A stretch of 64,000 nt of DNA from a virus, in the IMG/VR virus record IMGVR_UViG_3300029955_000013, positions 19,901 through 83,900 of that record; one strand, written 5' to 3'. The position numbers and the translations under genes are program-made. Position 1 is the first letter of the stretch, and every line of letters starts with the position of its first letter. Positions 27,103-53,710 of the stretch are shown piece after piece. The notes under the pieces are model-generated. The model ran no database searches. It was not told where the DNA came from and worked only from the letters and a program-made list of their open reading frames with translations.

Positions 27103-27110
27103 TACATTTG
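27103..27110 (+). promoter_or_regulatory. Bacteroidota sigma-70 -7 element for tRNA block 1
   Basis: TACATTTG matches TAnnTTTG. Confidence 0.75.
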
Positions 27111-27155
27111 TACTCTAAATAGCAAATAAGCAAATTTAAAGTATATAAAATATAT

Positions 27156-27248
27156 ATGAACAACAAGGTAAACATATTGATATTAGGCACCGAAGGCACA
27201 ACAGAGATTCTCGAAGGAATCCACTGGCTCCCAGCTCTATGTTCGTAA
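27156..27248 (+). CDS. attenuator leader peptide 1, MNNKVNILILGTEGTTEILEGIHWLPALCS
   Basis: 30-codon ORF between promoter and terminator; codons 7-22 are all I/L/G/T/E. Confidence 0.8.
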   Translation: MNNKVNILILGTEGTTEILEGIHWLPALCS

Positions 27249-27270
27249 GTTTACATTATGAATAAATTCG

Positions 27271-27305
27271 AAGCCTGGGAATAATCACCCAGGCTTTTTT
27301 ATTTT
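27271..27305 (+). terminator. attenuator terminator 1
   Basis: AAGCCTGGG/CCCAGGCTT plus U-tract; 5' arm can instead pair with TCCCAG (27229-27234). Confidence 0.85.
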
Positions 27306-27308
27306 AAC

Positions 27309-27384
27309 GGGAAAATCGCATAGTCAGGTCTATTGCCTCTGCCTTCCAAGCAGGTGTTCGTCGGTTCGAATCCGTCTTTTCCCT
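27309..27384 (+). tRNA. tRNA-Gly(TCC)
   Basis: GGGAAAA/TTTTCCC; loop CT-TCC-AA. Confidence 0.85.
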
Positions 27385-27441
27385 CACACGGGGCTCAGAT
27401 ACAAAGGTATCGTCTGCCCATGTTCTTTGACATATTATTAA

Positions 27442-27520
27442 GCCATGGTGGCACAGTGGTCGACTGCACCGGTCTTGTAAACCGGAATACAACACGTGGG
27501 TTCGAATCCCACCCATGGCT
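27442..27520 (+). tRNA. tRNA-Thr(TGT)
   Basis: GCCATGG/CCATGGC; CCGGT-CTTGTAA-ACCGG. Confidence 0.9.
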
Positions 27521-27526
27521 CATTAT

Positions 27527-27598
27527 CATCCTGTAGTCTAACGGTTAGGACGTCAGATTTTCACTCTGGAGATGGGGGTTCGATTCTCCCCAGGATGG
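27527..27598 (+). tRNA. tRNA-Glu(TTC)
   Basis: CATCCTG/CAGGATG; loop TT-TTC-AC. Confidence 0.9.
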
Positions 27599-27631
27599 CG
27601 ATTTTTAAAAGCTAATTTATAAATTCGTTTT

Positions 27632-28351
27632 ATGGAAAATCTTTATGACATTAACGGCCTCGTTTTCTGGAGCAAGAGGGAGATACAGTTTAGGAGGTAT
27701 GCGCAGGAATTTTTTTCGAGGGAGATAAGTGACCTGCTCATATTTGAGAACAAGAGCTGGTCTTTCCATGAGACTGAAGGCCCGCTGCTCATTCCTAAGT
27801 CCTTAATCAACGCCGATTATACCAACGAGGACATTTGGGTACAGGAAGTAATTGGCGACGATAACGAGCTCGTATTGAGGCCTGAGACTACTCCAAGCTC
27901 TTTCCGGTATGCGGTTTCTTTGATAAATAACTATGTTTCGCTCCCACCTATGGTTGTGGAGCAGACCGGCAAGTCATTCAGGCGGGAGCAGGATCAGGTC
28001 TCAAAGAACATGAGGCTCAAGGAATTCTACCAGCAGGAGTTCCAGTGCATTTATGCGGCGGACACCTTTAATGATTATCAGTCTAAGATATTGCCCGGCT
28101 TGGTGGCGGTTTTCCAAAAGCTGATTGGTAAGCCTTGCAGGATGGTAGATAGCGACAGGCTGCCTTCTTACAGCTTAAGGACTGTCGATGTGGAGGTGAA
28201 TAATGGTAACAAGTGGATGGAGGTTTGTTCTGTTTCAAAACGTACGGATTTTCCTATTCAAGTTAAGTTTGGTTCCAAGGAACCGAAGCCTATGCTGGTT
28301 CTCGAGATCGCGATAGGCCTTGACAGGTGCGTTTACAATTACTTTTTATAA
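27632..28351 (+). CDS. minimal class II aminoacyl-tRNA synthetase catalytic domain (GlyRS alpha2-like)
   Basis: LRPET, motif 2 GKSFRRE...EFYQQE, motif 3 EIAIGLDR; ends right after motif 3. Confidence 0.8.
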   Translation: MENLYDINGLVFWSKREIQFRRYAQEFFSREISDLLIFENKSWSFHETEGPLLIPKSLINADYTNEDIWVQEVIGDDNELVLRPETTPSSFRYAVSLINNYVSLPPMVVEQTGKSFRREQDQVSKNMRLKEFYQQEFQCIYAADTFNDYQSKILPGLVAVFQKLIGKPCRMVDSDRLPSYSLRTVDVEVNNGNKWMEVCSVSKRTDFPIQVKFGSKEPKPMLVLEIAIGLDRCVYNYFL

Positions 28352-28368
28352 TATTTTGCGGCCGAAAA

Positions 28369-28439
28369 GCATTTGTAGTTCAGTGATAGAACATGCCTCT
28401 CGTAAAGGTAAAACAGCAGTTTGATTCTGCTCTAATGCT
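28369..28439 (+). tRNA. tRNA-Thr(CGT), degenerate
   Basis: TGCCT-CTCGTAA-AGGTA; T-loop TTTGATT and D-loop lacking GG. Confidence 0.65.
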
Positions 28440-28496
28440 CATAAAGTTTTATTACTCTGGGGATTTCGATGTACATTTGCTTTGAAACATTATTCT

Positions 28497-29015
28497 ATGT
28501 ACAACATAAACAAGCGAGCGTTGGATATAAGGAAGATGTTTGGTGAGATTGCAGACATGAACAGTCCTTATGCTGGAACTCTGGATCTCGTTGTTAGGGA
28601 GGAAAAGATTTTCTGCATACTTGCCGAGTCGGTTAGCCAAACGCAGGCGAACTTCATGGTTCAAGAAATCTCAATGTCTTTCTTCCAGGACACGAAGAAC
28701 ATGTTGCTGTCGCAGGCCAAACTGATGCAGAATTTCATAGACACTTATTCTTCGTACGGTCCTGAGTTTAAGATAATAGAAGGGCAGCGAATGGCGTACC
28801 AGAATATGCTTAATTCAATAAATGGTTTGATCGAAGATGTTGACTCACATATAGAATTGTACACTCAATATATTGCGACCAACAACATAATAAAGAAAAG
28901 TATGAAGAAGACTATGAGGGAATGGAAGAAGAACGGTTTTCCTGATCGTTTTGCCGACTCGAGAGATATTCAGATAGTTCCAGACATAATGGGTAATGGT
29001 ACCACACCACCATAA
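28497..29015 (+). CDS. hypothetical protein
   Basis: Preceded by TACATTTG at 28472. Confidence 0.6.
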   Translation: MYNINKRALDIRKMFGEIADMNSPYAGTLDLVVREEKIFCILAESVSQTQANFMVQEISMSFFQDTKNMLLSQAKLMQNFIDTYSSYGPEFKIIEGQRMAYQNMLNSINGLIEDVDSHIELYTQYIATNNIIKKSMKKTMREWKKNGFPDRFADSRDIQIVPDIMGNGTTPP

Positions 29016-29023
29016 ATTAAAAT

Positions 29024-29095
29024 GCTCCGCTCTTCTAACGGTTAGGATGTGACCCTCTCACGGTTACGATACGGGTTCGATTCCCGTGCGGAGTA
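29024..29095 (+). tRNA. tRNA-Glu(CTC)
   Basis: GCTCCGC/GCGGAGT; loop CT-CTC-AC. Confidence 0.9.
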
Positions 29096-29110
29096 CAAAA
29101 AATAATTGAA

Positions 29111-29308
29111 ATGGGTTGGAAATGTACGCAGATTTTGACGAGACAGGAGGCGATAAATTTGATTGTTAGGTTGTCTGATGTGAGCATCTTGGAGAGCCTT
29201 TCTGACGACGATTTGTCAAACGTGGTTGACGGATTTTGTGGAGATAACATGGATATGCCTTATTATGGCTGCAACTTCATGGTCTCCGATGTTATAGATA
29301 ATGATTAA
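29111..29308 (+). CDS. hypothetical protein
   Basis: Small ORF between tRNAs. Confidence 0.55.
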   Translation: MGWKCTQILTRQEAINLIVRLSDVSILESLSDDDLSNVVDGFCGDNMDMPYYGCNFMVSDVIDND

Positions 29309-29312
29309 ATAA

Positions 29313-29384
29313 GCAGGAATAGCACAATGGCCAGTGTACGGGTTTGCCAAATCTGATATGGGAGTTCGATTCTCCCCTCCTGCT
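29313..29384 (+). tRNA. tRNA-Gly(GCC)
   Basis: GCAGGAA/CTCCTGC; loop TT-GCC-AA. Confidence 0.85.
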
Positions 29385-29465
29385 CTGTGTGTGCAAATAA
29401 AGTTCGAATCTTTACCTTATGTACCGGTTAGGGTAGGGTTAGTTCAATTGGTAGAACGGCACAGT
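29385..29465 (+). ncRNA. circularly permuted tRNA-like element (T-arm, closed acceptor stem, D-arm)
   Basis: TGTGC...AAAG-TTCGAAT-CTTT, ACCTTAT/GTAGGGT, GTTC-AATTGGTA-GAAC, GCACA. Confidence 0.65.
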
Positions 29466-29468
29466 GTC

Positions 29469-29541
29469 GGGCATGTAACTCAGCGGTTAGAGTAGTTCGC
29501 TCATAACGAAAAGGTCGTAGGTTCGATTCCTACCTCGCCCA
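29469..29541 (+). tRNA. tRNA with CAT anticodon, probably Ile2 (lysidine type)
   Basis: GGGC acceptor start, loop CT-CAT-AA, A73; two acceptor mismatches. Confidence 0.7.
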
Positions 29542-29561
29542 CCTTAAAAGCAAGAATACGA

Positions 29562-29771
29562 ATGGATAAAAATGAGTTAAAGAAGGTTATTTACAAGACA
29601 CAACCGATTGCGATTTTGCTTAATGTCAGGAAAGACGGATTGTCTTATGCTGCGAGTGTCGATAACAAGATAGTAAAGTTCTTTATACCATACGATGAGA
29701 TTGGTGAAGTGGTTTGGTTTGCAGAGATGCCGGCAAAGTTGCTGATAAGGTATTTGATAGATGTTGATTAA
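29562..29771 (+). CDS. hypothetical protein
   Basis: 69-aa ORF. Confidence 0.6.
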   Translation: MDKNELKKVIYKTQPIAILLNVRKDGLSYAASVDNKIVKFFIPYDEIGEVVWFAEMPAKLLIRYLIDVD

Positions 29772-29780
29772 ATATTTTTT

Positions 29781-30062
29781 ATGGAAGCCAAAGAGAAAAG
29801 ATTTCAGGGCCCTAATGGCGAGTTCGTACCGAGTAAACCGCTCAAGAAAGGCTACCTTTCTATAAAGCAAGCTGATGAAATATGTGAGTGGGTTTATTGT
29901 CACGACTCGTTTAGCGACGAAGAGAAGTTAAAAATGATACTTGGGGTGGAGACGCTGATCGGGGACATAATATCTGAGAACCTTGGAGACTTCAATGTGG
30001 CTTATGTTCCAACCTGGTCAACAAAGTTTAATGACAAAACGCCAATATCGTCTAACGGTTAG
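29781..30062 (+). CDS. hypothetical protein
   Basis: 3' end overlaps the next tRNA. Confidence 0.5.
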   Translation: MEAKEKRFQGPNGEFVPSKPLKKGYLSIKQADEICEWVYCHDSFSDEEKLKMILGVETLIGDIISENLGDFNVAYVPTWSTKFNDKTPISSNG

Positions 30063-30113
30063 GATTGCTCGTTTTCAGCGAGAAAGATGTCGGTTCGAAT
30101 CCGTCTATTGGTT
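30041..30113 (+). tRNA. tRNA-Glu(TTC), second copy
   Basis: GCCAATA/TATTGGT; CTCG-TTTTCAG-CGAG; U discriminator. Confidence 0.75.
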
Positions 30114-30198
30114 CAAAACTTGGAGGAATCTGGGTCTATCCTGAATTAATAAAGTGCGAGCAAGTGTACATATCTCGCCGCAATAAAGTAAGAGGGAT

Positions 30199-30270
30199 CG
30201 TGGATTAGCTCAGTGGTAGAGTAGCAGGCTGATGGACTGTTGGTCGGTGGTTCAAATCCACCATCCACAA
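30199..30270 (+). tRNA. atypical tRNA, GAT anticodon with C1:A72 mismatch
   Basis: CGTGGAT/ATCCACA; loop CT-GAT-GG; T-loop TTCAAAT. Confidence 0.7.
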
Positions 30271-30352
30271 CAAACCAGATAGGAATGTCTGGTGTGCTCT
30301 GGTAATGAGAGTGTGAATAAGCGCGAATAAAACACACTGGTAAGAAACAGAG

Positions 30353-30424
30353 TGTACTATAGGGTAGTGGTAGCCCGTCGGCATCAACAGCCGAAGATCT
30401 CAGGTTCGATTCCTGGTAGTGCAA
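30353..30424 (+). tRNA. atypical tRNA, CAA anticodon with short variable loop
   Basis: TGTACTA/TAGTGCA; TCGGC-ATCAACA-GCCGA. Confidence 0.7.
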
Positions 30425-30430
30425 CAATTT

Positions 30431-30769
30431 ATGGCTGAATATTATCATATAACTAATAGTAAAAACCTTAGTAATATCCTTACGGAAGGCCTGATACCAA
30501 ACAAGGGATATGGCATGAGCCGTAGGTTAATAAAGCATAACAAAAACTTTATTACGGATAATATTGCCTACATAATTCATAAGCAGATAGGCTTCAAAAG
30601 GTTTATTACAAAAGATTATGTAGTTCTTAATATCGAGCCATACGGTTTAAATATCAAAGAACACACTTATTGGGATCATATAAACCATAAACATGAAGTT
30701 GCAAAGCATGAGTTTGTTTGTTTTGACGTAATATTACCGAACAAAATTAGTGTAATGCAGAACAATTAA
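30431..30769 (+). CDS. ART-fold protein (Tpt1/KptA C-terminal-like)
   Basis: YHIT...L.NIL.EGL.P motif. Confidence 0.5.
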   Translation: MAEYYHITNSKNLSNILTEGLIPNKGYGMSRRLIKHNKNFITDNIAYIIHKQIGFKRFITKDYVVLNIEPYGLNIKEHTYWDHINHKHEVAKHEFVCFDVILPNKISVMQNN

Positions 30770-30778
30770 AATAATTTT

Positions 30779-31651
30779 ATGAACACACGTATTGCGCCTT
30801 CCCCAACAGGCTTTTTTCATCTGGGGACTGCACGGACAGCTTATCACAACTGGCTTGTGGCTCGCGCAACGGGTGGCTTGTTCACCCTGAGGATCGACGA
30901 CACCGACGACGACAGGAACGATGAGGGTCATGTACAGATGATCTACGACTGCATGGACTGGCTTGGTCTCGATTATGACGATACTTTCAGGCAGAGCGAC
31001 CGGAACAAGATTTATGTTGATTACGCTCAGTTCCTTTTGGACATTGATTATGCTACTGTTGCCGACAATGGTGCTATAATGTTTAGATTTCGTGATGAAG
31101 ATTTAATTCACTTTTTTAACGACACTATCGCCGGCAAGATAGAAACTAAGCAGGATGACATCGACAATCTTAGGAGCCTTGTTCTTATGAAGTCTGATGG
31201 TAACCCTACTTATAACTTCTGTTCCATTGTCGACGACTACCTAAGCAAGATAGACTGGATAATTCGTGGCGCCGATCACATAAAGAATACGATAAAACAG
31301 CTACATGTCATAGAGGCAGTTCAGTCTTTGGATAATCCGGTTAATTATTGGAAACCAAAGTTCACCCATGTGGGCCTTATACACGACATGAGCAACAAGA
31401 AGCTGTCCAAGAGGACCGGTGCGAAAAGCGTGCTCGACTACAAGAACGAAGGCGTAAAGCCGGGTGCTCTGCTCAACACGCTGCTTAGGATTGGCTGGGC
31501 GCCTACCGACCCGAACTTCGACTCGAAGCATAAGATCGTGACGAAGGACATGGCGGTGGACATGATACTCAAGGAAGGTAACTTCAGGTCTGCTCCCGGT
31601 AAGTTCGATCCGATGAAACTCGCATACTACAATAAAAAGCATAGTAATTAA
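30779..31651 (+). CDS. minimal glutamyl-tRNA synthetase catalytic domain (GluRS/GluQRS-like)
   Basis: TRIAPSPTG.HLGT, LRIDDTD, IRGADH, KLSKR; 290 aa, no anticodon-binding domain. Confidence 0.9.
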   Translation: MNTRIAPSPTGFFHLGTARTAYHNWLVARATGGLFTLRIDDTDDDRNDEGHVQMIYDCMDWLGLDYDDTFRQSDRNKIYVDYAQFLLDIDYATVADNGAIMFRFRDEDLIHFFNDTIAGKIETKQDDIDNLRSLVLMKSDGNPTYNFCSIVDDYLSKIDWIIRGADHIKNTIKQLHVIEAVQSLDNPVNYWKPKFTHVGLIHDMSNKKLSKRTGAKSVLDYKNEGVKPGALLNTLLRIGWAPTDPNFDSKHKIVTKDMAVDMILKEGNFRSAPGKFDPMKLAYYNKKHSN

Positions 31652-31679
31652 AAAAATGTCGCACATCAGTGCGACACTC

Positions 31680-31750
31680 GCCCGTATAATTTAATGGAAG
31701 ACTAATCCTTTGGTATGGGATATGCATCAGTTCGATTCTGATTATGGGCT
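31680..31750 (+). tRNA. tRNA-Thr(GGT)
   Basis: GCCCGTA/TATGGGC; ATCCT-TTGGTAT-GGGAT; weak D-arm. Confidence 0.75.
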
Positions 31751-31766
31751 CATAAAATTTCAATTA

Positions 31767-31937
31767 ATGCAGTTATCGTTTGGTATTGGTGATACGGTTT
31801 ACGCGAACGTTGGTGGCCAGGAGATGAAAATATTGGATGTCTCTGGCAACACGTATATTTGTCAGGTAATTGTTGACGGTAAGACGGAAAAGGTTAACTT
31901 CGAAAAGGGAACAGTACACAAGAAAATAAGGAAATAA
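31767..31937 (+). CDS. small YodC-like hypothetical protein
   Basis: F.IGD.V....GG..M pattern. Confidence 0.45.
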   Translation: MQLSFGIGDTVYANVGGQEMKILDVSGNTYICQVIVDGKTEKVNFEKGTVHKKIRK

Positions 31938-31991
31938 TTTATAAATGGAAAACATTCACGTCTCGTCTGGATAGCTCATCATTGATCAACA

Positions 31992-32195
31992 ATGATGACT
32001 ACAATTACAAGAACTCGATTTTGGAGAGTCGAGTGGATCCATAGAAATGGATACCGTGCACCACATTCGTTTGTGGAAGCAAAAAACAAGAAAGAGGCTG
32101 TGAAAATAGCCCAAGATAATTCCAGGTTTACTGATTTTCCCAAGACTTGGTCCTTTAATCTTGTCCGCTTAGTGGAGAAGGGAGAGGAAGAATAA
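31992..32195 (+). CDS. hypothetical protein
   Basis: VEAKNKKEAVKIA phage-type motif. Confidence 0.55.
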   Translation: MMTTITRTRFWRVEWIHRNGYRAPHSFVEAKNKKEAVKIAQDNSRFTDFPKTWSFNLVRLVEKGEEE

Positions 32196-32313
32196 ATGAC
32201 TTAAAACCGAACGGGTTTGTGGACAAGCAACAACCTGCTCCTGGCCAGCAATGGTATATGGAAAAACCACTTTAAATATGTTGTCGTGAAAGGGGGCGGT
32301 GACCCTTTCAAAT

Positions 32314-32384
32314 GCGGGAGTAGCACAATGGTAGTGCACGGGCTTGCCAAGTCTGATACGAGGGTTCGATTCCCTTCTCCCGCT
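32314..32384 (+). tRNA. tRNA-Gly(GCC), second copy
   Basis: GCGGGAG/CTCCCGC; loop TT-GCC-AA. Confidence 0.92.
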
Positions 32385-32419
32385 CAGGGTTAAAAAGAGT
32401 TTAAAATAAAAACAATTCT

Positions 32420-32692
32420 ATGAGTAATTTAAAGATACCTTCTTTTGAAGAGGTATTAGCGAATGATGGCAAGGCTGAAGACCTTGAGCTTATTAAGATA
32501 GAAAAGCAATCTCAGCTTGACACCCAGGTCAGGACCATAGAGGTTAAGATAGCAAGGGCACGCAAGCTTTTTGCGAAGTCTGTGATCGACCCGAAGATTG
32601 ACACTTTGGCGATTGCCTCAGAACTAAAGATATTGACTGCGGAACTCGAGCTTGCGAAGGAAATAAGAGAGGCGGTTTTCCCAAAAAATTAA
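32420..32692 (+). CDS. hypothetical coiled-coil protein
   Basis: 90-aa ORF. Confidence 0.6.
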   Translation: MSNLKIPSFEEVLANDGKAEDLELIKIEKQSQLDTQVRTIEVKIARARKLFAKSVIDPKIDTLAIASELKILTAELELAKEIREAVFPKN

Positions 32693-32696
32693 TTTG

Positions 32697-33476
32697 ATGA
32701 GCGTTATTGATGAACTTTGGAAACCTCAGCAAGAATCCGTTCACGATTATGACGACACTGTAAAAGAACTGCATCCGTACAAGGATTATATCCAGGAGAA
32801 GTATCGGCCGGAGCCTTGCGATTACAACAATTCGCCGCCTCGTTTTTATTATGGTTATGGCAACAGTTCTATTTTAATCACCAAGCAGCGTGGAAGGCGT
32901 AGGCATCTTGGGAAGCATATCATCATCAAAAAGACGCTTAAAAGCACCTATCTCGATTTTGAGCTTCCTGACAAACTTTACGTTACTGTAGAGGGTTTGA
33001 TCGTACATGAAAGCGATTTCTATTGTACTGATGACTCGTTCATGGAGGCGGAATACTTTACTAACAAGTCCATTTACCTGCAGTTTAAAGACGTTAGTTG
33101 CGACATCAACTTAATAGCTTATTTCTTGACCAATAAGGAGTATGATGATTACGAGAAGGAAGACTATCGGTATAGGAGCATGGGCATGATGAGTCCTGTG
33201 CTGGAAATTTACAAGTATCTGCACGAGGGTCGTTCGAAGATAGAGATCGTTTACTGCAATACCTTCTTTGATGATCCGAACAAGCATGTCATAAATAACA
33301 TGTTAAATACGAGTAAGTTTTTGATAGACCCGGTGGCCCCAATCGTACAAAGTGTTTGTGATCTCGGCCGGCATCTGTTCGTCAGCTCTAATGGTTACAT
33401 CTGTCACTGGAAGTTTTATACCAGATTAGATACAGACTTACTGATAAGACATGCTAAAAAACTTGTATTTCTATGA
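32697..33476 (+). CDS. hypothetical protein
   Basis: ~259-aa ORF. Confidence 0.6.
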   Translation: MSVIDELWKPQQESVHDYDDTVKELHPYKDYIQEKYRPEPCDYNNSPPRFYYGYGNSSILITKQRGRRRHLGKHIIIKKTLKSTYLDFELPDKLYVTVEGLIVHESDFYCTDDSFMEAEYFTNKSIYLQFKDVSCDINLIAYFLTNKEYDDYEKEDYRYRSMGMMSPVLEIYKYLHEGRSKIEIVYCNTFFDDPNKHVINNMLNTSKFLIDPVAPIVQSVCDLGRHLFVSSNGYICHWKFYTRLDTDLLIRHAKKLVFL

Positions 33477-33964
33477 ACATATTTGTGCTCGGCGGTACCA
33501 AGTCCGGTAAATCCACCATTGCGAAGTATATTGCTGATACGTATGGCTTCAAACTCATACAGATGTCCAAGCCGCTGAAAGATAGGTTCGAGCGTGGGGA
33601 TCTGAACATAGACGTTTACACGAACATGTTGGTTAAGACCACGCTTAGTTACATAGGTTCCAAAGAGAGGCGTAAATCTGAGTATTTCTTGAATTACGCT
33701 TTGCTGGAAATGGGGCCTAATAATGTGTTCGACGGTGTGCGGAACCCTCGTGACTTCATGAGGCTTTTCAATCACTTCGAGGACATGGTTATAAAGATGC
33801 CTGGCGAAGGCATAAATGCTTTTGAGGTGGATGGCTTAAGAGCTATATTCGGCTGCCACAGGTATATGTACAAGTACATGAGCGCAAAGCCGCTGATCAA
33901 GTACCATTACGATCTGGAGCTATCCATAGAGGAGAATTTCCAGAACAACAAAATAGTCATTTAA
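33473..33964 (+). CDS. P-loop nucleotide kinase-like protein
   Basis: GGTKSGKST, FDGVRN. Confidence 0.7.
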   Translation: MNIFVLGGTKSGKSTIAKYIADTYGFKLIQMSKPLKDRFERGDLNIDVYTNMLVKTTLSYIGSKERRKSEYFLNYALLEMGPNNVFDGVRNPRDFMRLFNHFEDMVIKMPGEGINAFEVDGLRAIFGCHRYMYKYMSAKPLIKYHYDLELSIEENFQNNKIVI

Positions 33965-33973
33965 AAGTAGCTT

Positions 33974-46576: not shown

Positions 46577-46606
46577 AAGGGAATTCAGAAATGAGTTCCT
46601 TTTTTT
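46577..46606 (+). terminator. intrinsic terminator ending tRNA block 1
   Basis: GGGAATTCA-GAAA-TGAGTTCCT plus U-tract. Confidence 0.75.
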
Positions 46607-46636
46607 ATTTCGGGGATTCGGTGCTACATTTGTTCT

Positions 46637-46900: not shown

Positions 46901-47172
46901 GATACATAATATTGACAGCTGCAATATTTTTAGCATCTTGTAATTCGGATTACACTGAGGTGAAGATGCATACTGGCATAATAGTAGACAAATTCATGAG
47001 ATCATCTGGGGACGATAATGGAGGTTCAACTCCAGTAATCGTAATGAGGGACGATTCTATTGTTAGAAACATACCAGTATACGTTAATCTTGGAATCTAT
47101 ACGAACGTGTGGGTTGGAAAAAAAGTGACACTATACTTATCGCAAGAAGCTATTGATACTTACTCGAGATAA
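46897..47172 (+). CDS. small lipoprotein (paralog 2)
   Basis: Lipobox LASC; G.IVDK...DS...Y.N..VG. Confidence 0.7.
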   Translation: MRYIILTAAIFLASCNSDYTEVKMHTGIIVDKFMRSSGDDNGGSTPVIVMRDDSIVRNIPVYVNLGIYTNVWVGKKVTLYLSQEAIDTYSR

Positions 47173-47185
47173 ATAAATTTGCAAA

Positions 47186-47482
47186 ATGAGAAGGAATAAT
47201 TGGAGTATAATCGTGTGTGCATTCATAGGCATGTTTCTGTTTGGCATTGCAGTTGGTTGTAAGCCTGGTCGGACGTACCATATTGCCGGCAAGGTGACCT
47301 CAAAGTTTACTCTTGCACGTGGTAAGAGTGATGATGATTTGTTTATAGTCGTTTACAGCGACTCTATGCACCAGAAGGTGCCGATCGAAGTTACCATGTC
47401 GACCTACATCAACCATGACGTGGGTGAATACATCGAGTTCGATCTCGACCAGTTCGACATAGATCGGGCGTTGAACTACTGA
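47186..47482 (+). CDS. small lipoprotein (paralog 3)
   Basis: Lipobox AVGC; DS...YIN..VG..I.F.L. Confidence 0.7.
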   Translation: MRRNNWSIIVCAFIGMFLFGIAVGCKPGRTYHIAGKVTSKFTLARGKSDDDLFIVVYSDSMHQKVPIEVTMSTYINHDVGEYIEFDLDQFDIDRALNY

Positions 47483-47579
47483 TTTCTGGAACGCCGGCAA
47501 AATAACTGCCCGGTTTGTTTGTTGTGGTAATATTGCCTATTTTTATGTCGATATATTGTATCACATATAAATAAAAGTA

Positions 47580-47738
47580 ATGATTATTATCTTGATTTTG
47601 ACGCACATAGGTGCATTTGCTGCCGGCGCATTGGTGTTCCGTAATAACTCGTCAAAGATTGAAACTACCGTGGACGCTGTGACAGCAACGGAGAAGACTG
47701 TTGTAGCCGACGTAAAAGATGTCGCCGCAAAAGTTTAA
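47580..47738 (+). CDS. 52-aa single-TM late protein (not in ORF track)
   Basis: MIIILILTHIGAFAAGALVFRNN...; TATAAATA at 47566. Confidence 0.55.
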   Translation: MIIILILTHIGAFAAGALVFRNNSSKIETTVDAVTATEKTVVADVKDVAAKV

Positions 47739-47767
47739 AAAAATTTTTTTTAGTATTTAAAATATTG

Positions 47768-47775
47768 TATATTTG
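47768..47775 (+). promoter_or_regulatory. Bacteroidota sigma-70 -7 element for tRNA block 2
   Basis: TATATTTG matches TAnnTTTG. Confidence 0.75.
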
Positions 47776-47793
47776 CATCGTAATAATAAAGCA

Positions 47794-47871
47794 ATGAAAA
47801 ATTTATCATCATACAGCTCAAGTTGGTCTTGGTCCTCTAAAAGGGATGAGAGCGGAACTGTATTGTGGTAA
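47794..47871 (+). CDS. attenuator leader peptide 2, MKNLSSYSSSWSWSSKRDESGTVLW
   Basis: 25 codons with 9 Ser and 3 Trp, between promoter and terminator. Confidence 0.82.
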   Translation: MKNLSSYSSSWSWSSKRDESGTVLW

Positions 47872-47894
47872 GTGAAATACTTTAAATACATTTG

Positions 47895-47927
47895 AGCCTC
47901 GTCCTAAACAGACGAGGTTTTTTATTT
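47895..47927 (+). terminator. attenuator terminator 2
   Basis: AGCCTCGTC/GACGAGGTT plus U-tract; 5' arm can instead pair with GGATGAG (47844-47850). Confidence 0.85.
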
Positions 47928-47930
47928 ACA

Positions 47931-48004
47931 TACGTCGTAGCATAATGGTATGCACCCGGTCTCCAAAACCGTGGATAGACAGAGTTCGATTCTCTGACGG
48001 CGTG
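47931..48004 (+). tRNA. tRNA-Trp(CCA)
   Basis: CGGT-CTCCAAA-ACCG; CAGAG-TTCGATT-CTCTG. Confidence 0.8.
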
Positions 48005-48019
48005 CTTTAAAAAGTGATA

Positions 48020-48277
48020 ATGAAGGCAAGTGAGTTGATTGTGAAGTTGCAGAAGGCTGTGAGCGAGCATGGAGACATGTTGGTGTTGGTCCAGGAAAAC
48101 GGTTTCGGTGGTTACTCCATGAAGATAGCGGAATCGGATGAGGGCGACTTGATGTACTTAGGTGACAAAGAACTCGAGAATCTCGACGATGACGAAATTA
48201 AAGAGCACGGCATCAAGGTGAATGAGGACAATTTTGTGTTTACGATCAACAGCCATACGACTTTGTTTTCGACTTAA
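48020..48277 (+). CDS. hypothetical protein
   Basis: MKASELI.KLQ...HGD phage-type start. Confidence 0.6.
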   Translation: MKASELIVKLQKAVSEHGDMLVLVQENGFGGYSMKIAESDEGDLMYLGDKELENLDDDEIKEHGIKVNEDNFVFTINSHTTLFST

Positions 48278-48287
48278 CAAAATATAC

Positions 48288-48358
48288 ACGGGTGTAGTTC
48301 AATGGTAGAATAAGAGTCTCCAAAACTCCAGATGTGGGTTCGAATCCGTCCATCCGTG
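48288..48358 (+). tRNA. tRNA-Trp(CCA), second copy
   Basis: ACGGGTG/CATCCGT; GAGT-CTCCAAA-ACTC. Confidence 0.88.
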
Positions 48359-48385
48359 CTTTTTTCAAATGCTAAGTATTGTGCA

Positions 48386-48583
48386 ATGGATATGTTGAAA
48401 TGTAGAAAAGGAAGCCATATTGCGGTTAAAGTGCCCATGATAGGGCTGGAGACGTTCGCCAAGGACGAGCGGGACGTCCCGGTTGCGATTTCGGAGGCCG
48501 TGGTCGCGTTCTGTATCGCGGCCGAGAAGTTTGGCCGCGGGATCGAGGTGGAGCTGGCGGAGGCGATCGAAAACGAGTTATAG
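48386..48583 (+). CDS. HicB-like small protein
   Basis: P.IGLETFA.DE.D...AI.EA...F. Confidence 0.4.
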   Translation: MDMLKCRKGSHIAVKVPMIGLETFAKDERDVPVAISEAVVAFCIAAEKFGRGIEVELAEAIENEL

Positions 48584-48678
48584 CGTGGACTAAAAATTTA
48601 GATCTTTGACATTGTGGAGGCTAATAAATGATTGTATTAGTCAGTATTATCTGTTATATTCGTGTAACAAATAAGTTA

Positions 48679-49629
48679 ATGGATAGGAAGGATGTTTATG
48701 CCGTGATAGACGGCGAGAGGAATTACCAGGATAACAAGTGGGGCCCGCAGGCTAATTCAAACAAACCGGTTGAGAGCTACATAGTTTACATGCAGGCTTA
48801 CTTGGCCGATGCCATACAGGCGATCTCCAAGAACGCCGGTACAAAGCTCGCTCTCGACGAGCTGAGGAAAGTGGTTGCTCTCGGCGTGTCTTGTTTTGAA
48901 GTCAACGGCGTCCCTAATAGAAAAGCAACGGTAGAGAATGAAGATGGACTTACGACGCCGGAAAAGTTTATCGAGTTCATTTCCGAAAATTGGATCAGGA
49001 GCGGCCTTTACAAGGAAAATCAGTTTTATAAGAGCTTTTACGCTATTGAGCCGATCTCTTTCGAAGAAAAAGAGGTGAAGTCTAAGTTCAATTTTGGCAC
49101 GGAGCTGTTCCAGTCTATTTGTTCCAGCTATACTTGTACGCCTAAAGAAGATTTGCTTTCCGAGTTGTACGGGATGTTCATGGAGCAGCTGTGTATGGAA
49201 GCTTTGACTGCTACTGTTAAAATGCTTGATGTTGAAGTTAAGGACATGACTTTCGTTAAGTCTGTTGATTCCATTCCTTTCGTCGGAAACATGATGATGG
49301 GTCCAGAGATGTTGGCTAATTTGTATCATGATTATAAATGCACGCCTAACAATATTAGCGATTTTTCCCCGCTTTTTATGGGGGCTGAGAGGTGTGCGAA
49401 GTTCAAAGACAAGAATGTATACGTTAATCCTTTTTTACCGGAAGACGTATTTCTGTTGTTCAATGAGGGCTTCATGAACTTCGATATTCTGTTCGATCCA
49501 AGGAAATCTGATTATGGCTATTACATGTTCAATTTGAAGATAAGGGTGAATAAGAATAACGTCAGGAGGTATAAAATTTCCGACGCACCGAGGTGGGAAC
49601 ACCCGGCATATTGTAACATTTTTAAATAG
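48679..49629 (+). CDS. protein with N-terminal MazG-like helical domain
   Basis: I..ER.YQD.KWG...ELRKV.AL.V.C.E. Confidence 0.5.
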   Translation: MDRKDVYAVIDGERNYQDNKWGPQANSNKPVESYIVYMQAYLADAIQAISKNAGTKLALDELRKVVALGVSCFEVNGVPNRKATVENEDGLTTPEKFIEFISENWIRSGLYKENQFYKSFYAIEPISFEEKEVKSKFNFGTELFQSICSSYTCTPKEDLLSELYGMFMEQLCMEALTATVKMLDVEVKDMTFVKSVDSIPFVGNMMMGPEMLANLYHDYKCTPNNISDFSPLFMGAERCAKFKDKNVYVNPFLPEDVFLLFNEGFMNFDILFDPRKSDYGYYMFNLKIRVNKNNVRRYKISDAPRWEHPAYCNIFK

Positions 49630-49637
49630 GTTGTAAT

Positions 49638-49952
49638 ATGTTTGAACACATTGGTTTCTATTTCAGCAAGGACACGTACGGCGGCAACTGTTGGAAAAGC
49701 TTCGAGACCGTTGATGAGCTGAAGAGGTATAAGACTGAGTACGAGATGTTGTATGCAAATATACAGCAATGCGTCTCGACCGTGCCTACGCCGAGATTCA
49801 AAATAAAGCTTAACGTGAGGGGTACTTTTTATGTAGCAGACATGCAATACGTCAACGTAAGGGATACAATAGTTAAGACGGCAGAGGATGCGATCGAACT
49901 TATAAAAAACTGGAGAGAATATGACCCCGTTGAAACACAAGATTTATCTTGA
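49638..49952 (+). CDS. hypothetical protein
   Basis: 104-aa ORF. Confidence 0.55.
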   Translation: MFEHIGFYFSKDTYGGNCWKSFETVDELKRYKTEYEMLYANIQQCVSTVPTPRFKIKLNVRGTFYVADMQYVNVRDTIVKTAEDAIELIKNWREYDPVETQDLS

Positions 49953-50580
49953 CAAGATTCCGGCCCAAGGCCGTTTCGGCGCCATAAGGAAGCATGACAT
50001 CCACACTGGCGTTGACCTACACTGTCCTGAGTTTGCACTCGTGTATGCGATGGAGACTGGCACCGTAGTGAACATCTGTCCTTTCACTGGGGATGACGCA
50101 GGATCACCCTGGTGGAATGACACGTCAGCCGTTCTAATCAAGGGAAGATCCGGCATTGTTTTGTACGGCGAGGTTGGCCTCATAAAAGTAAAGGTAGGCG
50201 ACAGAGTCACAAAGGGCGATAACTTTGCTTGCGTATTCAAGGTTTTGAAGAACGATAAAGGCCTGCCTACGAGCATGCTTCACGTAGAGCTATATCATAA
50301 GGACTATATCGGGGATGGCGAGTGGTGGAAGCACGACGAGCCGCAGCCGAGACACCTGAAGAATGTAGAGGCAATGCTTAAGAGGGTTGACGAGAGGAAC
50401 GATCCTTATCTACAGATGAAGAAGCGAGGGCTTACAGATGCGGAGATCGCTGATGGAACAGTATTCGATGCTTCGTATTACATGGAGCCGCTCGAGGCGG
50501 AAAGGTCGGGGAAGGAAATAATGGAAGAGTTTAGGAAGCACAGACAAAAAATGAAAAATGAAATTGAAGCTGGTAATTGA
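49921..50580 (+). CDS. M23 family peptidase
   Basis: HTGVDL, VKVGDRV.KG, LH.E. Confidence 0.8.
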   Translation: MTPLKHKIYLDKIPAQGRFGAIRKHDIHTGVDLHCPEFALVYAMETGTVVNICPFTGDDAGSPWWNDTSAVLIKGRSGIVLYGEVGLIKVKVGDRVTKGDNFACVFKVLKNDKGLPTSMLHVELYHKDYIGDGEWWKHDEPQPRHLKNVEAMLKRVDERNDPYLQMKKRGLTDAEIADGTVFDASYYMEPLEAERSGKEIMEEFRKHRQKMKNEIEAGN

Positions 50581-50785
50581 ATATTGTGATACGATAGCGT
50601 TGGAGGATCCAAGCGCAGCATACATTGGGTATTTTGATGATTTCCCGATATGCGTCGTCGGAAGCAGCCCGGAGCATGTCTTCGAGGAAGTGATGACCTC
50701 TATAAAGATAAAGATTGCGCACGACTCTGGTTTATCACATTTAATTCTGAAAGGCAATGACAAGAAAGAGCAGCTTACAGCTTAA
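50558..50785 (+). CDS. HicB-like small protein
   Basis: YIGYF.DFP.CVV.G.SPE....E. Confidence 0.45.
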   Translation: MKLKLVIEYCDTIALEDPSAAYIGYFDDFPICVVGSSPEHVFEEVMTSIKIKIAHDSGLSHLILKGNDKKEQLTA

Positions 50786-50969
50786 GAGCCTGTTCGATTC
50801 GAAGGGTGCATTGTCTATCTGGGTGAAGAGTGCCCCGGAGCCGTATTTTAAGAACTTAAAACCTGGCAGCATAGAGATGGACGACGCAGGGAATCTTTGG
50901 ATCGACCAGGGCACAACGGTGTGCTACGTACCGGAGCACAACATCGCGCAAATTGTGTTCAAACCGTAG
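50757..50969 (+). CDS. hypothetical protein
   Basis: 70-aa ORF. Confidence 0.5.
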   Translation: MTRKSSLQLKSLFDSKGALSIWVKSAPEPYFKNLKPGSIEMDDAGNLWIDQGTTVCYVPEHNIAQIVFKP

Positions 50970-50985
50970 GAATATTGTAATATAA

Positions 50986-51077
50986 GGAAGGTTGGGCGAG
51001 TGGTTTATGCCGTTAGTTTTGAAAACTAAAGATCGTGTGATGAGCATGATCCGTCGGTTCGAATCCGACATCTTCCT
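50986..51077 (+). tRNA. tRNA-Ser(TGA)
   Basis: TTAGT-TTTGAAA-ACTAA; long variable arm. Confidence 0.9.
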
Positions 51078-51089
51078 CAAAATATAATT

Positions 51090-51440
51090 ATGGAATTTGA
51101 GCTTTTCACAGTCATCAGTATAGACGACAGCAATTGCATCGTTTTTATAAATAACTACGAGCGTCCTGATGCCGTTTTGGTTGATTTGCAAGACCAGCTT
51201 CGTACGCTCGATTTCAACGGCGAGGTTTATTTTGATCTGCTTCTTCCGAACGGCCCAAGTCAAAGGTTCTTTTCAATGAACTTCGACGGCTACGTATTTG
51301 AGCTGAATACGATGAAAGCATTGGAGTTTGTGCCGGACGATGTGTTTGGTGTATCGAGTAAGTACTTCAAGGAGAACAAGCATTTGTTGGGACGAGGCGT
51401 TTTGCTGAAGTATCAGATTGAAGAGTTTATGAATGCTTAA
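51090..51440 (+). CDS. RnlB-family antitoxin
   Basis: E.P...L...GEVYFDLLLPNGP..RF resembles the RnlB core GEILFDLL..NGP..RF; similar length. Confidence 0.75.
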   Translation: MEFELFTVISIDDSNCIVFINNYERPDAVLVDLQDQLRTLDFNGEVYFDLLLPNGPSQRFFSMNFDGYVFELNTMKALEFVPDDVFGVSSKYFKENKHLLGRGVLLKYQIEEFMNA

Positions 51441-51451
51441 CTGCATTACAA

Positions 51452-51536
51452 GGAGAGGTGTCAGAGTGGTCTATCGTAACAGTTTGCTAAACTGTTGACT
51501 GTAACAGGTCCAGGGGTTCGAATCCCCTCCTCTCCT
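51452..51536 (+). tRNA. tRNA-Ser(GCT)
   Basis: GGAGAGG/CCTCTCC; ACAGT-TTGCTAA-ACTGT. Confidence 0.9.
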
Positions 51537-51565
51537 CTGAAAAACAAAATGACAAATACATTTAC

Positions 51566-51922
51566 ATGCCACTACTTACGGATTATTTTATGGGTATTGA
51601 TATTGGGGATGGCACCATAGATAACTTATCATGTTTGGTGGTTATGAATAGCGATAAACTTGTTATATATCAAACTCTTATATGTGATAAAAAGCAGTTT
51701 AAAGAGGAGGTTAACAGGGTAAAAAAGTTTTATAATATCCCAAGTGAAAATATTTTAATTGTTAAACATAACATAAATAAAAGGAGTGTCTACACTACCG
51801 ATTTTCATGCAGAATTATTGGAGGGTTGGCAGAGCGGTCGAATGCGGCAGTCTCGAAAACTGTTGGCTGTAACAGGTCCGGGAGTTCGAATCTCCCACCC
51901 TCCTCCGGGTATTAATGTCTAA
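51566..51922 (+). CDS. hypothetical AT-rich ORF with RNase H-like start; reads through tRNA-Ser(CGA)
   Basis: YFMGIDIG motif; real 3' end doubtful. Confidence 0.4.
   Translation: MPLLTDYFMGIDIGDGTIDNLSCLVVMNSDKLVIYQTLICDKKQFKEEVNRVKKFYNIPSENILIVKHNINKRSVYTTDFHAELLEGWQSGRMRQSRKLLAVTGPGVRISHPPPGINV
51820..51904 (+). tRNA. tRNA-Ser(CGA)
   Basis: GGAGGGT/ACCCTCC; GCAGT-CTCGAAA-ACTGT. Confidence 0.92.
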
Positions 51923-51932
51923 GTTCGTGGTC

Positions 51933-52019
51933 AAGAAGTGAACCGGCTGGATCAGGAGCCAGTTGTGAAAGGCTGGTGGGCTCTAACAGGCCTTGGGAGT
52001 TCGAGTCTCCTCACTTATT
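51933..52019 (+). tRNA. non-canonical Ser-type tRNA (8/4- or 9/4-like fold, irregular anticodon loop)
   Basis: AAGTGA/TCACTT; GGAG-TTCGAGT-CTCC; CCAGT-TGTGAAAG-GCTGG; variable arm like neighbouring Ser tRNAs. Confidence 0.6.
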
Positions 52020-52087
52020 CTTTGGTTTAAACCATTATTAATTCGTTGTATTCTTTTGGGTTTGTATTTAAAGTATAAACGTTATTA

Positions 52088-52660
52088 ATGTCGTACAACG
52101 TGTTTGATATATACTTTATAACTATCGTCCTAATCGTTGCTGTACTTTGGTTTGTGAAGACTTACCTCAATACCTCTCGCATTGGGTTCTTCAGGAACCA
52201 AGAGCAGAAGATACAGGACTCGGAGGAAATATCGAGCACGCTTGGCAAGATAGTTATGGATTTTGGTGCGTTCAGGGCGTTCATCTTCAAGTGTTTTGGC
52301 GATCCGGACCCGAAGTACGGCAACGATTGGTTTTTGAAGATATTGTTTCAGCAGGGGTACACCGAAGGCATGCTGCCTAAGTACGACTGGAGGACCCTTG
52401 ACCACGTGTATTTGGGCATGATTGCAAAGACCGCTAAGGACGGCATTAATGCTTTCTACATTGAAGACCTTCCGGAGTGTCTTACGAAGAGGTTGTATAA
52501 GGAGCTTAATGTTGATTATGCTGTTATGTACTACCTGCAGGGTGACTCGCACAATATAATATATTCGAGCATTAGTTTCAAGAGGGCGCAAGACTTTTTT
52601 GACAACAAGGATGACATCATGAAGATGTTTAAGAGGCTTGGTAAGCTTTACAAAAAATAA
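52088..52660 (+). CDS. N-terminal TM protein with GAF-like soluble domain (possible T4 T-like holin)
   Basis: One TM, then globular domain; TATTTAAA upstream. Confidence 0.4.
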   Translation: MSYNVFDIYFITIVLIVAVLWFVKTYLNTSRIGFFRNQEQKIQDSEEISSTLGKIVMDFGAFRAFIFKCFGDPDPKYGNDWFLKILFQQGYTEGMLPKYDWRTLDHVYLGMIAKTAKDGINAFYIEDLPECLTKRLYKELNVDYAVMYYLQGDSHNIIYSSISFKRAQDFFDNKDDIMKMFKRLGKLYKK

Positions 52661-52714
52661 TTTATGAGTTGATCGTTCTACGAATCCCACTTATTTATGT
52701 TATAAAAATATTTT

Positions 52715-53086
52715 ATGGTAGGTATATTCGACGAGCCTATGCCGCTCGATAGGGTTAATGAGTTTCTGCAGAAGCCTACAAACATAGGCGTCGAGGCCTT
52801 CCACAAGCTGCTGTGGTGCCTCAGCATCGGGACTATAAAGTTCTTCGATAGGCTTTTAGTTGAAGGTTCGTTGTTCGAATGCATCGTCAACATAGGCTTC
52901 ATGGAGTCCAAGGGCGACATACGCAGGATGATGAAGAACAACGGCCTGAAGGTGTCGGGCAAGATGCTGACGGAGAAGTTCGTCGTGTCGGAAGATTGCT
53001 GGTTTGATGTTGAAGGTTCAAAGATAAAGTTTCTCGTGTTGCAGAAGGGCAGGAAAAGTTTTGACTTACTATTTAAAGTTATATAA
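52715..53086 (+). CDS. stand-alone S4 domain resembling TyrRS C-terminus
   Basis: G..ESKGDIRR.....GLKV.G...LVLQKGRK.F. Confidence 0.7.
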   Translation: MVGIFDEPMPLDRVNEFLQKPTNIGVEAFHKLLWCLSIGTIKFFDRLLVEGSLFECIVNIGFMESKGDIRRMMKNNGLKVSGKMLTEKFVVSEDCWFDVEGSKIKFLVLQKGRKSFDLLFKVI

Positions 53087-53093
53087 ATTTTGA

Positions 53094-53621
53094 ATGAAAG
53101 CGAACAAATTAGACGAGTTGAACACTACATCTTACGCGAAAGCTATGGACAGCACTGAAAACTTCCCCTTTGCGCAGATGCTTGCGGGCGACAACAAGGA
53201 TTTTAAGAATCGTGCCGACAAAATGGCAAACGTCAACAGCCTTGCGAAAAGAGGCTTCGAGGCGAGCTGGAATAAGGAGTTCAAGGGTACGCCCATAACC
53301 TTCATAGGCAAGAAGACGAACAAGGCTTATACCTACCCTGTTTTTGGCTTGAAGTTCAACGCGAACTACACGAACTTCGACATACTTTTGTCTACGGACG
53401 GCGATCTCGGCAGGTCCTTGATTTGGGTCAAGAATCCTTTGTACATAGACCAGCACGGCATGGAAAAAATCGCTCCCGAGCCAGTGACGTTGGACCCGAA
53501 GTCGAGGGAAATGTTCAAGAAGATGTTCTCGTTTGGTTTCAGTGCGGATCATGCCAGCAGGGGTCAGATAGGTGAGAGCATTGTGGAAAAGATAATGAAA
53601 GAAGCTGTAAGCAGCAAATAA
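53094..53621 (+). CDS. hypothetical late protein
   Basis: TATTTAAA at 53070; LDEL...Y start. Confidence 0.65.
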   Translation: MKANKLDELNTTSYAKAMDSTENFPFAQMLAGDNKDFKNRADKMANVNSLAKRGFEASWNKEFKGTPITFIGKKTNKAYTYPVFGLKFNANYTNFDILLSTDGDLGRSLIWVKNPLYIDQHGMEKIAPEPVTLDPKSREMFKKMFSFGFSADHASRGQIGESIVEKIMKEAVSSK

Positions 53622-53710
53622 GGAGAGGTGCCCGAGTGGTTGATGGGGCTCGCCTGGAAAGCGTGTTGTCGGGTCAAACTGGCACAAGGGTTCGAATCCC
53701 TTCCTCTCCT
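53622..53710 (+). tRNA. tRNA-Ser(GGA)
   Basis: GGAGAGG/CCTCTCC; loop CT-GGA-AA; long variable arm. Confidence 0.92.

Follow-up and report, generated by a model that had tools for sequence, protein, structure and literature searches.

Candidate leader-peptide attenuators at the heads of two amino-acid-sorted tRNA gene blocks in a phage genome

Neither the reason why phages carry transfer RNA (tRNA) genes nor the way in which these genes are controlled is settled; current work addresses codon-usage compensation and escape from tRNA-targeting defences, and the arrays are treated as constitutively expressed. The question of control is raised directly by the stretch analyzed here (the window), which is the 3' 64 kb of the 83.9-kb IMG/VR virus record IMGVR_UViG_3300029955_000013 and is present as the same DNA in several peat metagenomes: two blocks of tRNA genes each begin with a promoter, a miniature open reading frame (ORF), and an intrinsic terminator placed just before the first tRNA. 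Judging from the sequence, both units are likely to be ribosome-mediated (leader-peptide) transcription attenuators that head phage tRNA genes, and the phage probably makes these tRNAs when ribosomes run short of them.

From 23.4 kb on, the window is a translation island that is encoded on the + strand throughout. ARAGORN identified 27 tRNA genes and one transfer-messenger RNA (tmRNA), all on the + strand; 24 tRNAs and the tmRNA are supported at the gathering score in a whole-window Rfam scan, and the first tRNA-Trp (47932) scores 32.1 bits in a local Rfam scan. The ORFs of the window read normally in code 11, and there is no suppressor tRNA among its tRNA genes. Block 1 (27309-46561) holds tRNAs for Gly (×3), Thr (×3), Glu (×3), Ile (×3), and Leu (×4), together with one CAU tRNA, one Cys tRNA, and one doubtful Pro(agg) called by ARAGORN only, whereas block 2 (47932-53712) holds Trp (×2) and Ser (×4) tRNAs and nothing else; two more CAU tRNAs (57597 and 57972, i.e., 57.6-58.0 kb) stand outside both blocks. 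The sorting of the tRNAs into two blocks by amino acid, claimed in a first-pass annotation made from the letters alone, is therefore confirmed by ARAGORN and Rfam, and by our own count the chance of the six Trp/Ser genes standing contiguous among 27 is 22/296,010. In block 1, Gly(tcc), Thr(tgt), and Glu(ttc) come first (27309-27599; ARAGORN and Rfam), and are followed by 16 tRNAs interleaved with protein genes (28369-46561; ARAGORN) in the order Thr, Glu, Gly, CAU, Glu, Ile, Leu, Thr, Gly, Ile, Ile, Pro (doubtful), Leu, Leu, Leu, and Cys. The block 2 tRNAs, Trp (47932 and 48288) and Ser with anticodons tga (50986), gct (51452), cga (51820), and gga (53622), are interleaved with ORFs of no assigned function and a gene for an M23 peptidase (49921-50580).

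Both blocks are headed by the same four parts in the same order, and all four had been picked out in the first reading: a Bacteroidota-type TAnnTTTG promoter, a short ORF with an ATG start, an antiterminator-compatible sequence, and a U-tailed terminator before the first tRNA. In unit 1, the promoter (27079-27110; known by its motif only) has the extended form TTTTTTTATTCTGG...TACATTTG, with the -7 box TACATTTG at 27103-27110. The predicted leader ORF 1 (27156-27248; 30 codons plus stop; MNNKVNILILGTEGTTEILEGIHWLPALCS) starts at an ATG with AT-rich sequence upstream, and its codons 7-22 (27174-27221; ILILGTEGTTEILEGI; local segment score 12.0) form a putative regulatory run of 16 successive residues drawn exclusively from Ile (4), Leu (3), Gly (3), Thr (3), and Glu (3). 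This composition mirrors the tRNA gene counts of block 1 (Ile 3, Leu 4, Gly 3, Thr 3, and Glu 3), and from residue frequencies we calculate the chance of such a run as 0.339^16, or ~3e-8 per position. Region 2, the antiterminator-compatible sequence, is UCCCAGCUC (27229-27237; codons 25-28), and the intrinsic terminator (27270-27307) consists of a stem, GAAGCCUGGG/CCCAGGCUUU, that forms a GC-rich hairpin of 10-11 bp (27270-27297), and the T run TTTTTTATTTT, with tRNA-Gly (27309) 11 nt after the hairpin.

Unit 2 repeats this layout with different codons. Its -7 box, TATATTTG (47768-47775; again a motif only), is preceded by an A/T tract, and the predicted leader ORF 2 (47794-47871; 25 codons plus stop; MKNLSSYSSSWSWSSKRDESGTVLW) carries its run at codons 4-15 (47803-47838; LSSYSSSWSWSS; local segment score 18.8), with SSYSSSWSWSS (codons 5-15) as the scored core. 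Nine Ser and three Trp residues make up 12 of the 24 residues after Met1, against 1.8 expected (binomial ~4e-8, -log10 P 7.4). The nine Ser codons are of five different kinds (TCA, TCT, TCC, AGC, and AGT), so the Ser run is not a DNA repeat, and 9/9 are readable by the four downstream tRNA-Ser anticodons, AGC and AGT via tRNA-Ser(gct). Region 1 (GGUCUUGGUCCU; 47825-47836) comprises the Trp-Ser-Trp-Ser codons, region 2 is GGGAUGAGAGC (47843-47853), and the terminator (47894-47930; GAGCCUCGUC/GACGAGGUUU plus TTTTTTATTT) has a GC-rich stem of 10-11 bp (47894-47920) and a T run, with tRNA-Trp (47932) 11 nt after the stem. Neither leader is enriched in the amino acids of the other block: leader 1 has 20 block 1 residues against 12.2 expected and two Trp/Ser residues against 2.2 expected, and leader 2 has 12 Trp/Ser residues and five block 1 residues, the latter against 10.1 expected. 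The claim that each leader is enriched for its own block, and not for the other, is thus upheld.

Could such units be coincidental, with small ORFs that arose by chance and ordinary terminators belonging to upstream transcription units that happen to stand before tRNA genes? Small ORFs are plentiful, and TAnnTTTG by itself is common (44 occurrences on the + strand of the window). The extended promoter TTTTTATTyyGGrrAwt-N-TAyMTTTG has exactly four copies in the window (23412, 27079, 28447, and 46600), all intergenic; two precede the tmRNA and leader 1, and the others lie at 28447-28479 and 46600-46632. Of the + strand terminator candidates located before tRNAs, the hairpins of units 1 and 2 are the strongest, and the other strong terminators of the window follow tRNA-Cys (46576) and the last CAU tRNA (58165). 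The evidence that bears most directly on coincidence comes from related phages.

A megablast of 23 kb against GenBank phages found no close relative, only a 69-nt tRNA-like match; the GluRS-like gene of block 1 and the M23 peptidase gene have no relatives in IMG/VR; tblastn with the RNA ligase of block 1 found only relatives at ≤46% identity, in unrelated phages; and a 333-amino-acid protein has no homologue but itself in 5.8 billion proteins and no match in PDB, Pfam, NCBIfam, or PHROGs. Relatives were instead reached through the GlyRS-like protein of block 1, which retrieved 31 IMG/VR loci (many of them in 400-560 kb phages), and through the portal protein, which added six, and tRNA-rich stretches of seven of those IMG/VR records were added to the comparison set. 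Already in the first set, arrays recur in which a strong terminator ends 6-17 nt ahead of the first tRNA, preceded in 7/8 cases by an ATG mini-ORF, and overall at least 17 further mini-ORF/terminator units stand before tRNA arrays in related huge phages, with the ATG mini-ORF in the same position.

The leader runs of these units change with the tRNAs that follow. SRSRSSRS precedes tRNAs for Ser, Arg, Ser, Ser, Arg, and Ser; YEGYYYEEE precedes Tyr, Glu, Glu, Glu, Tyr, and Tyr; LHHFYLNL precedes Phe, Tyr, Tyr, Asn, Asn, His, His, and Leu; KRKRRI precedes Arg, Arg, Lys, Ile, and Ile; IQIPQQPRR precedes Pro, Gln, Ile, Gln, Arg, and Pro; and QVQPDPQ precedes Asp (×3), Glu, Pro (×2), and Gln (×4). 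NNNNAN is followed by Asn (×2), and both QQVQQQQ and QQQQQQ by Gln arrays (Gln ×4 in the case of QQVQQQQ). The run IYIGYIAEGGYEAG is followed by Glu (×3), Tyr (×2), Gly (×3), Ile, and Ala (×2); SYSYCYYGSSSSSVSYGYESEE by Glu, Ser, Tyr, Gly, and Cys; SSHKHFSKSNKWFSHS by His, Trp, Phe, His, Phe, Lys (×3), and Ser; and CARCFFQQRCRR by Gln (×3), Arg, Cys, Arg, and Cys. A natural experiment is offered by two units with nearly identical terminators (L008:8587 and L009:7292): the run at L008:8587 is without Tyr and Glu codons, and the Tyr and Glu tRNAs of that phage lie upstream of the leader.

The covariation was quantified without pre-selection of units, using all 103 cluster-initial tRNAs and the 136 ATG ORFs of 10-50 codons that end 25-150 nt upstream of them. 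Each mini-ORF received the log-likelihood score of its best local segment, with the composition of the next ten tRNAs as reference, and the tRNA sets were shuffled among units 2000 times; a local segment was adopted because binomial and global log-likelihood scores are weak for multivalent leaders, penalizing their non-regulatory N and C termini. Fifteen units score ≥10 against 1.09 expected (permutation maximum 6 in 2000), and 12 score ≥12 against 0.64 expected by permutation. The covariation of leader codons with downstream tRNA sets that the first-pass annotation had suggested looking for in related phages is therefore present. The matching extends to individual codons: downstream anticodons can read 202/239 regulatory codons, where 183 would be expected given codon usage, AGY Ser codons do not occur where tRNA-Ser(gct) does not follow, and ATA is used where tRNA-Ile(tat) follows. 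The geometry is conserved as well, with the stop codon 20-26 nt from a 10-14 bp stem in 15/19 units and the first tRNA 6-17 nt past the terminator in most. Coincidence could still be invoked for a single cluster, as one relative has a terminator-preceded tRNA cluster without a matching leader (L036:16061); against the permutation result, the codon-level matching, the conserved geometry, and the statistics of leader 2, it is a highly improbable explanation for the units as a whole.

In the same relatives, a tRNA with a CTA anticodon (a TAG reader) lies a few hundred bases upstream of the GlyRS-like gene in many huge phages (L012, L018, L019, L020, L024, L025, L027, L028, L041, and L047), whereas the window is without one. 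These CTA tRNAs suggest TAG recoding or suppression in those lineages.

How might a leader control a terminator? In both units, mutually exclusive 1:2, 2:3, and 3:4 pairings are possible in predicted folds, and the module recurs in divergent huge phages; both findings strongly support the core of the reading first proposed for this locus, a trpL/thrL-type attenuator. The minimum-energy fold of each leader transcript has two elements, a long hairpin across the ORF and the terminator hairpin (z -3.6 each). In unit 2, region 1 (47825-47836) pairs with region 2 (47843-47853), and when the 3' arm of the terminator is withheld, region 2 pairs with the 5' arm (47896-47905) through 10 bp with a one-base bulge; this antiterminator duplex, at -13.2 kcal/mol against -8.8 kcal/mol in shuffles (z -2.4, p 0.02), beats 98% of dinucleotide shuffles. 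In unit 1, region 2 (27229-27237) pairs under the same condition with the 5' arm (27270-27280) through 9 bp, and its weaker partner, in the minimum-energy fold, is the Gly-Thr-Glu codon region. Across 17 units, the stretch that best complements the 5' arm is located beyond the run, in the 3' part of the ORF, with region 2 ending about 1-39 nt short of the last base of the stop codon; against dinucleotide shuffles, the mean z is -2.3, with 16/17 negative and four between -3.8 and -6.6 (the best being -6.6 and -6.2). Both window units have region 2 within the final third of the ORF and 21-22 nt between stop codon and stem, an arrangement in which a ribosome at the stop codon would cover region 2 and permit termination.

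From these features we infer that the leader ORFs are translated, that ribosomes stall in them, and that read-through is regulated. Transcription would start at the Bacteroidota-type promoter, and a ribosome would translate the mini-ORF. With fast decoding of the run, the ribosome would reach the stop codon and cover region 2, the terminator 20-22 nt further on would form, and the transcript would end 11 nt before the first tRNA. If charged tRNA were scarce, the ribosome would stall in the run and mask region 1, region 2 would be free to pair with the 5' arm of the terminator, and RNA polymerase would read into the tRNA genes, for a distance that we likewise infer. The output, namely tRNAs and in block 1 also co-transcribed genes similar to those of aminoacyl-tRNA synthetases (aaRS), would relieve the stall and match supply to demand for each amino-acid group. 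Because its output relieves the stall, the circuit would regulate the supply of particular (charged) tRNAs by feedback.

Several points weigh against this reading, some of which would suit an alternative in which the mini-ORFs are matched and translated, yet control is exerted otherwise, for example with ribosome speed on the leader acting on Rho-dependent termination, RNase cleavage, or the stability of the tRNA precursor, or with a terminator that simply insulates the unit and a separate promoter for the tRNAs. The antiterminator duplex of unit 1 (-10.6 kcal/mol against -9.3 kcal/mol in shuffles; z -0.6) is not significant alone, which would fit such an alternative, and the region 1:2 pairing of unit 1 is not continuous. 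Little sequence separates the run from region 2 (4-6 nt in the window, 2-14 nt in most relatives, and an overlap in three), so a stall would leave region 2 available only if it came early or midway in the run; the classical footprint model is fitted imperfectly in this respect, and the alternative gains accordingly. Promoters past the leaders are a further point in its favor, as tRNAs could be driven independently from two places. In block 1, a promoter of the same extended type (28447-28479; motif only) lies 1.1 kb past the attenuator and could feed much of the block, including the Ile and Leu tRNAs, which are sampled by leader 1 and lie 3-18 kb downstream, past this promoter. In block 2, a second TAnnTTTG (TACATTTG; 47887-47894) abuts the terminator stem and is either a possible bypass promoter, from which transcripts could start inside the terminator arm, or due to chance; it has no upstream T-tract/GG element and no counterpart in unit 1 or in relatives. 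Sequencing runs that contain positions 44001-54000 are all peat metagenome DNA runs, kept as contigs, and none of those listed is an RNA run. Finally, the design is not found in all related phages, and the 430-kb record behind L036 shows almost none of it. Control by means other than the terminator/antiterminator switch nevertheless seems quite unlikely to us: the complement of the 5' arm occupies the same place in 17 units and is far better than in shuffles, stop codon and stem keep a distance of 20-26 nt, as a ribosome-footprint switch needs, and relatives have no conserved promoter motif between leader and tRNA.

If the units are attenuators, how far does each of them reach? The first-pass annotation had replacement tRNAs, synthetases, and an RNA ligase induced on demand, and had added the caveats of an internal promoter and a terminator-like hairpin. 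The caveats were borne out, in the promoter at 28447-28479 and in a weak hairpin with a poor T tail (44049-44074) between the ligase gene and the next gene, and control by one attenuator over the whole 19-kb block, with all synthetase-like genes and the Rnl2 ligase, is not sustained, the promoter 1.1 kb past unit 1 looking constitutive. Because this third extended promoter lies so close downstream, the sure reach of unit 1 is limited to the first four tRNAs and the GlyRS-like gene: by sequence, unit 1 alone would certainly gate only Gly(tcc), Thr(tgt), Glu(ttc), the GlyRS-like gene, and Thr(cgt). Block 1 is closed by a terminator after tRNA-Cys (46576-46610), the T tract of which doubles as the upstream element of the promoter at 46600-46632. 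An ORF before tRNA-Cys (46361-46411; ..WSSRKCSM..) was considered as a leader and rejected as due to chance, as it lies inside the gene at 46063-46473 in another frame and has no terminator.

What would the attenuators respond to? The trigger could be phage codon demand that is mismatched with the host tRNA supply, loss of host tRNAs during infection, or anticodon nucleases. The last of these corresponds to the proposal that the units are counter-defence sensors, which detect depletion by an anticodon nuclease and induce replacement tRNAs along with repair functions, and the mechanism would indeed answer any loss of decodable tRNA. An Rnl2-family RNA ligase (42901-44037), aaRS-core paralogues, and a phage tmRNA lie in or beside the blocks, as this proposal would have it; against it, the ligase gene is 15 kb from attenuator 1, behind the internal promoter, and the proteins scanned with Pfam, PHROGs, and NCBIfam include no polynucleotide kinase/phosphatase that would partner it. 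Nor was a gene found in these scans for the antitoxin that the first-pass annotation had included among the induced functions. The synthetases that it had also named are present as aaRS-like genes, although as short catalytic-core paralogues and not as full-length enzymes: a class II paralogue nearest GlyRS (239 amino acids; 27632-28351; Pfam PF00587), which matches the NCBIfam glycine--tRNA ligase model at 3e-13, far under the cut-off; a GluRS/GluQRS-like protein (290 amino acids; 30779-31651); an AlaRS-like protein (403 amino acids; 33974-35185); and a class-I aaRS-like protein (388 amino acids; 36976-38142). The sensed amino acids are not tied by sequence to known nuclease targets, and at least 19 amino acids are sampled when the leaders of the window and of its relatives are taken together. 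A role as a dedicated counter-defence sensor is thus unlikely, and the breadth of the leaders favors general supply control over a response to a single defence, although the two are not exclusive.

The leader-peptide attenuators of Escherichia coli and Salmonella (trpL, hisL, leuL, and pheL, the multivalent thrL and ilvL, and pheM of pheST) offer the closest mechanistic comparison. Like these, the phage units have a short codon-rich leader, exclusive 1:2/2:3/3:4 hairpins, and an intrinsic terminator just upstream of the genes, and several phage leaders are multivalent in the manner of thrL and ilvL, sampling 2-7 amino acids each. Unlike the classical attenuators, the phage units are viral, have Bacteroidota-type promoters and no Shine-Dalgarno sequence, and the first genes they would regulate are tRNA genes (and aaRS-like genes), not genes for biosynthetic enzymes or an aminoacyl-tRNA synthetase; feedback on tRNA supply would be direct, because the sensed quantity and the output are the same class of molecule. 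Rfam leader families (Trp_leader, His_leader, Leu_leader, Thr_leader, etc.) and the T-box gave no match in the window, where only tRNA and tmRNA models pass, and local Rfam scans of the leaders with E up to 1 gave only chance-level matches to small RNAs. The T-box also senses the state of a specific tRNA and switches between terminator and antiterminator before translation-related genes, binding uncharged tRNA directly via a specifier codon in a process for which translation is not needed. The phage units resemble it in sensing the state of tRNA, but their leaders are small ORFs with codon runs and have no match to the T-box model.

Among published examples in which a supplementary tRNA array is regulated, the nearest is the trn operon of Anabaena sp. 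PCC 7120, a 26-gene array that is silent or low by default and is induced when translation is impaired (PMC8421152), under the control of the ribbon-helix-helix (RHH) repressor TrcR at its promoters (PMC10272220). It differs from the phage arrays in being cellular and in using a protein repressor, and there is no mention of an attenuator or leader peptide for it (PMC8421152, PMC10272220). In the window, no RHH protein, the type of repressor that recognizes an 8-bp site at the Anabaena array promoter, turned up in Pfam, PHROGs, and NCBIfam scans of the larger ORFs, the small ORFs not having been scanned. A full-text literature search found no description of leader-peptide attenuation before tRNA genes or phage tRNA arrays.

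If the attenuation reading is true, huge phages would monitor decoding speed and adjust tRNA supply by amino-acid group. Attenuation would reach a new output (tRNA genes), viruses, and Bacteroidota-type expression signals, and the grouping of tRNAs by amino acid fits gating by group-specific leaders. The question of "supply versus defence" would become directly testable through a control loop that is readable from sequence, and the leaders are possible compact natural sensors of aminoacyl-tRNA pools. With less than even confidence, we tentatively extend this to a general organizing principle of huge-phage tRNA islands, in which tRNA genes would be sorted into amino-acid regulons because a multivalent test peptide gates each of them, and tRNAs, aaRS-like helpers, and RNA-repair functions would be topped up as needed, including after attack by anticodon nucleases. 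On this wider reading, these would be the first tRNA genes under translational-speed feedback, and the leaders would form a set of sensors for nearly every amino acid.

The remaining contents of the window include genes for a portal protein, tail proteins, and a glycosyltransferase, and within the translation island a Ham1 pyrophosphatase. All four aaRS paralogues (239-403 amino acids) are catalytic cores that score far below the NCBIfam cut-offs, and their activity is only putative. The GlyRS-like and GluRS/GluQRS-like genes stand among Gly and Glu tRNAs, and there is an AlaRS-like gene, yet the window is without a tRNA-Ala. An ORF just past the Rnl2 ligase gene (43830-44537) matches PHROG 4786 'cysteine dioxygenase' (3e-20) over residues 85-218, which would place its true start after the hairpin at 44049-44074.

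Two tRNA calls in block 1 are ambiguous. tRNA-Pro(agg) (38469-38548; 80 nt) is an ARAGORN call below the Rfam gathering score, and may be a false call or an aberrant tRNA. The sole CAU tRNA of the block (29469-29543) might be a tRNA-Ile2 (lysidine), not tRNA-Met. In leader 1, ATA occurs twice and Met only at the start; an alignment with the CAU tRNAs at 57597 and 57972 does not decide whether it is a tRNA-Ile2 that matches these ATA codons. The CAU tRNA at 57597 is directly preceded by a sigma-70-type promoter (57558-57587; TTGCCA-18-TATAAT, 11/12 consensus) unlike the TAnnTTTG promoters elsewhere, and no leader ORF stands before the CAU tRNAs.

Between the two tRNA blocks, with a promoter of their own, are three tandem small ORFs (46637-47482; 87, 91, and 98 amino acids) with lipoprotein-like N termini (a hydrophobic stretch, then Cys), which look like paralogues. 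The tmRNA (23485-23899; Rfam 60.8 bits; tag AKNKRIAEGGAILRNIFSKSEAPCAIAA) is headed by a separate extended promoter, of the leader 1 type (23412), and is directly followed by a gene for a GIY-YIG/NUMOD homing endonuclease (23939-24862).

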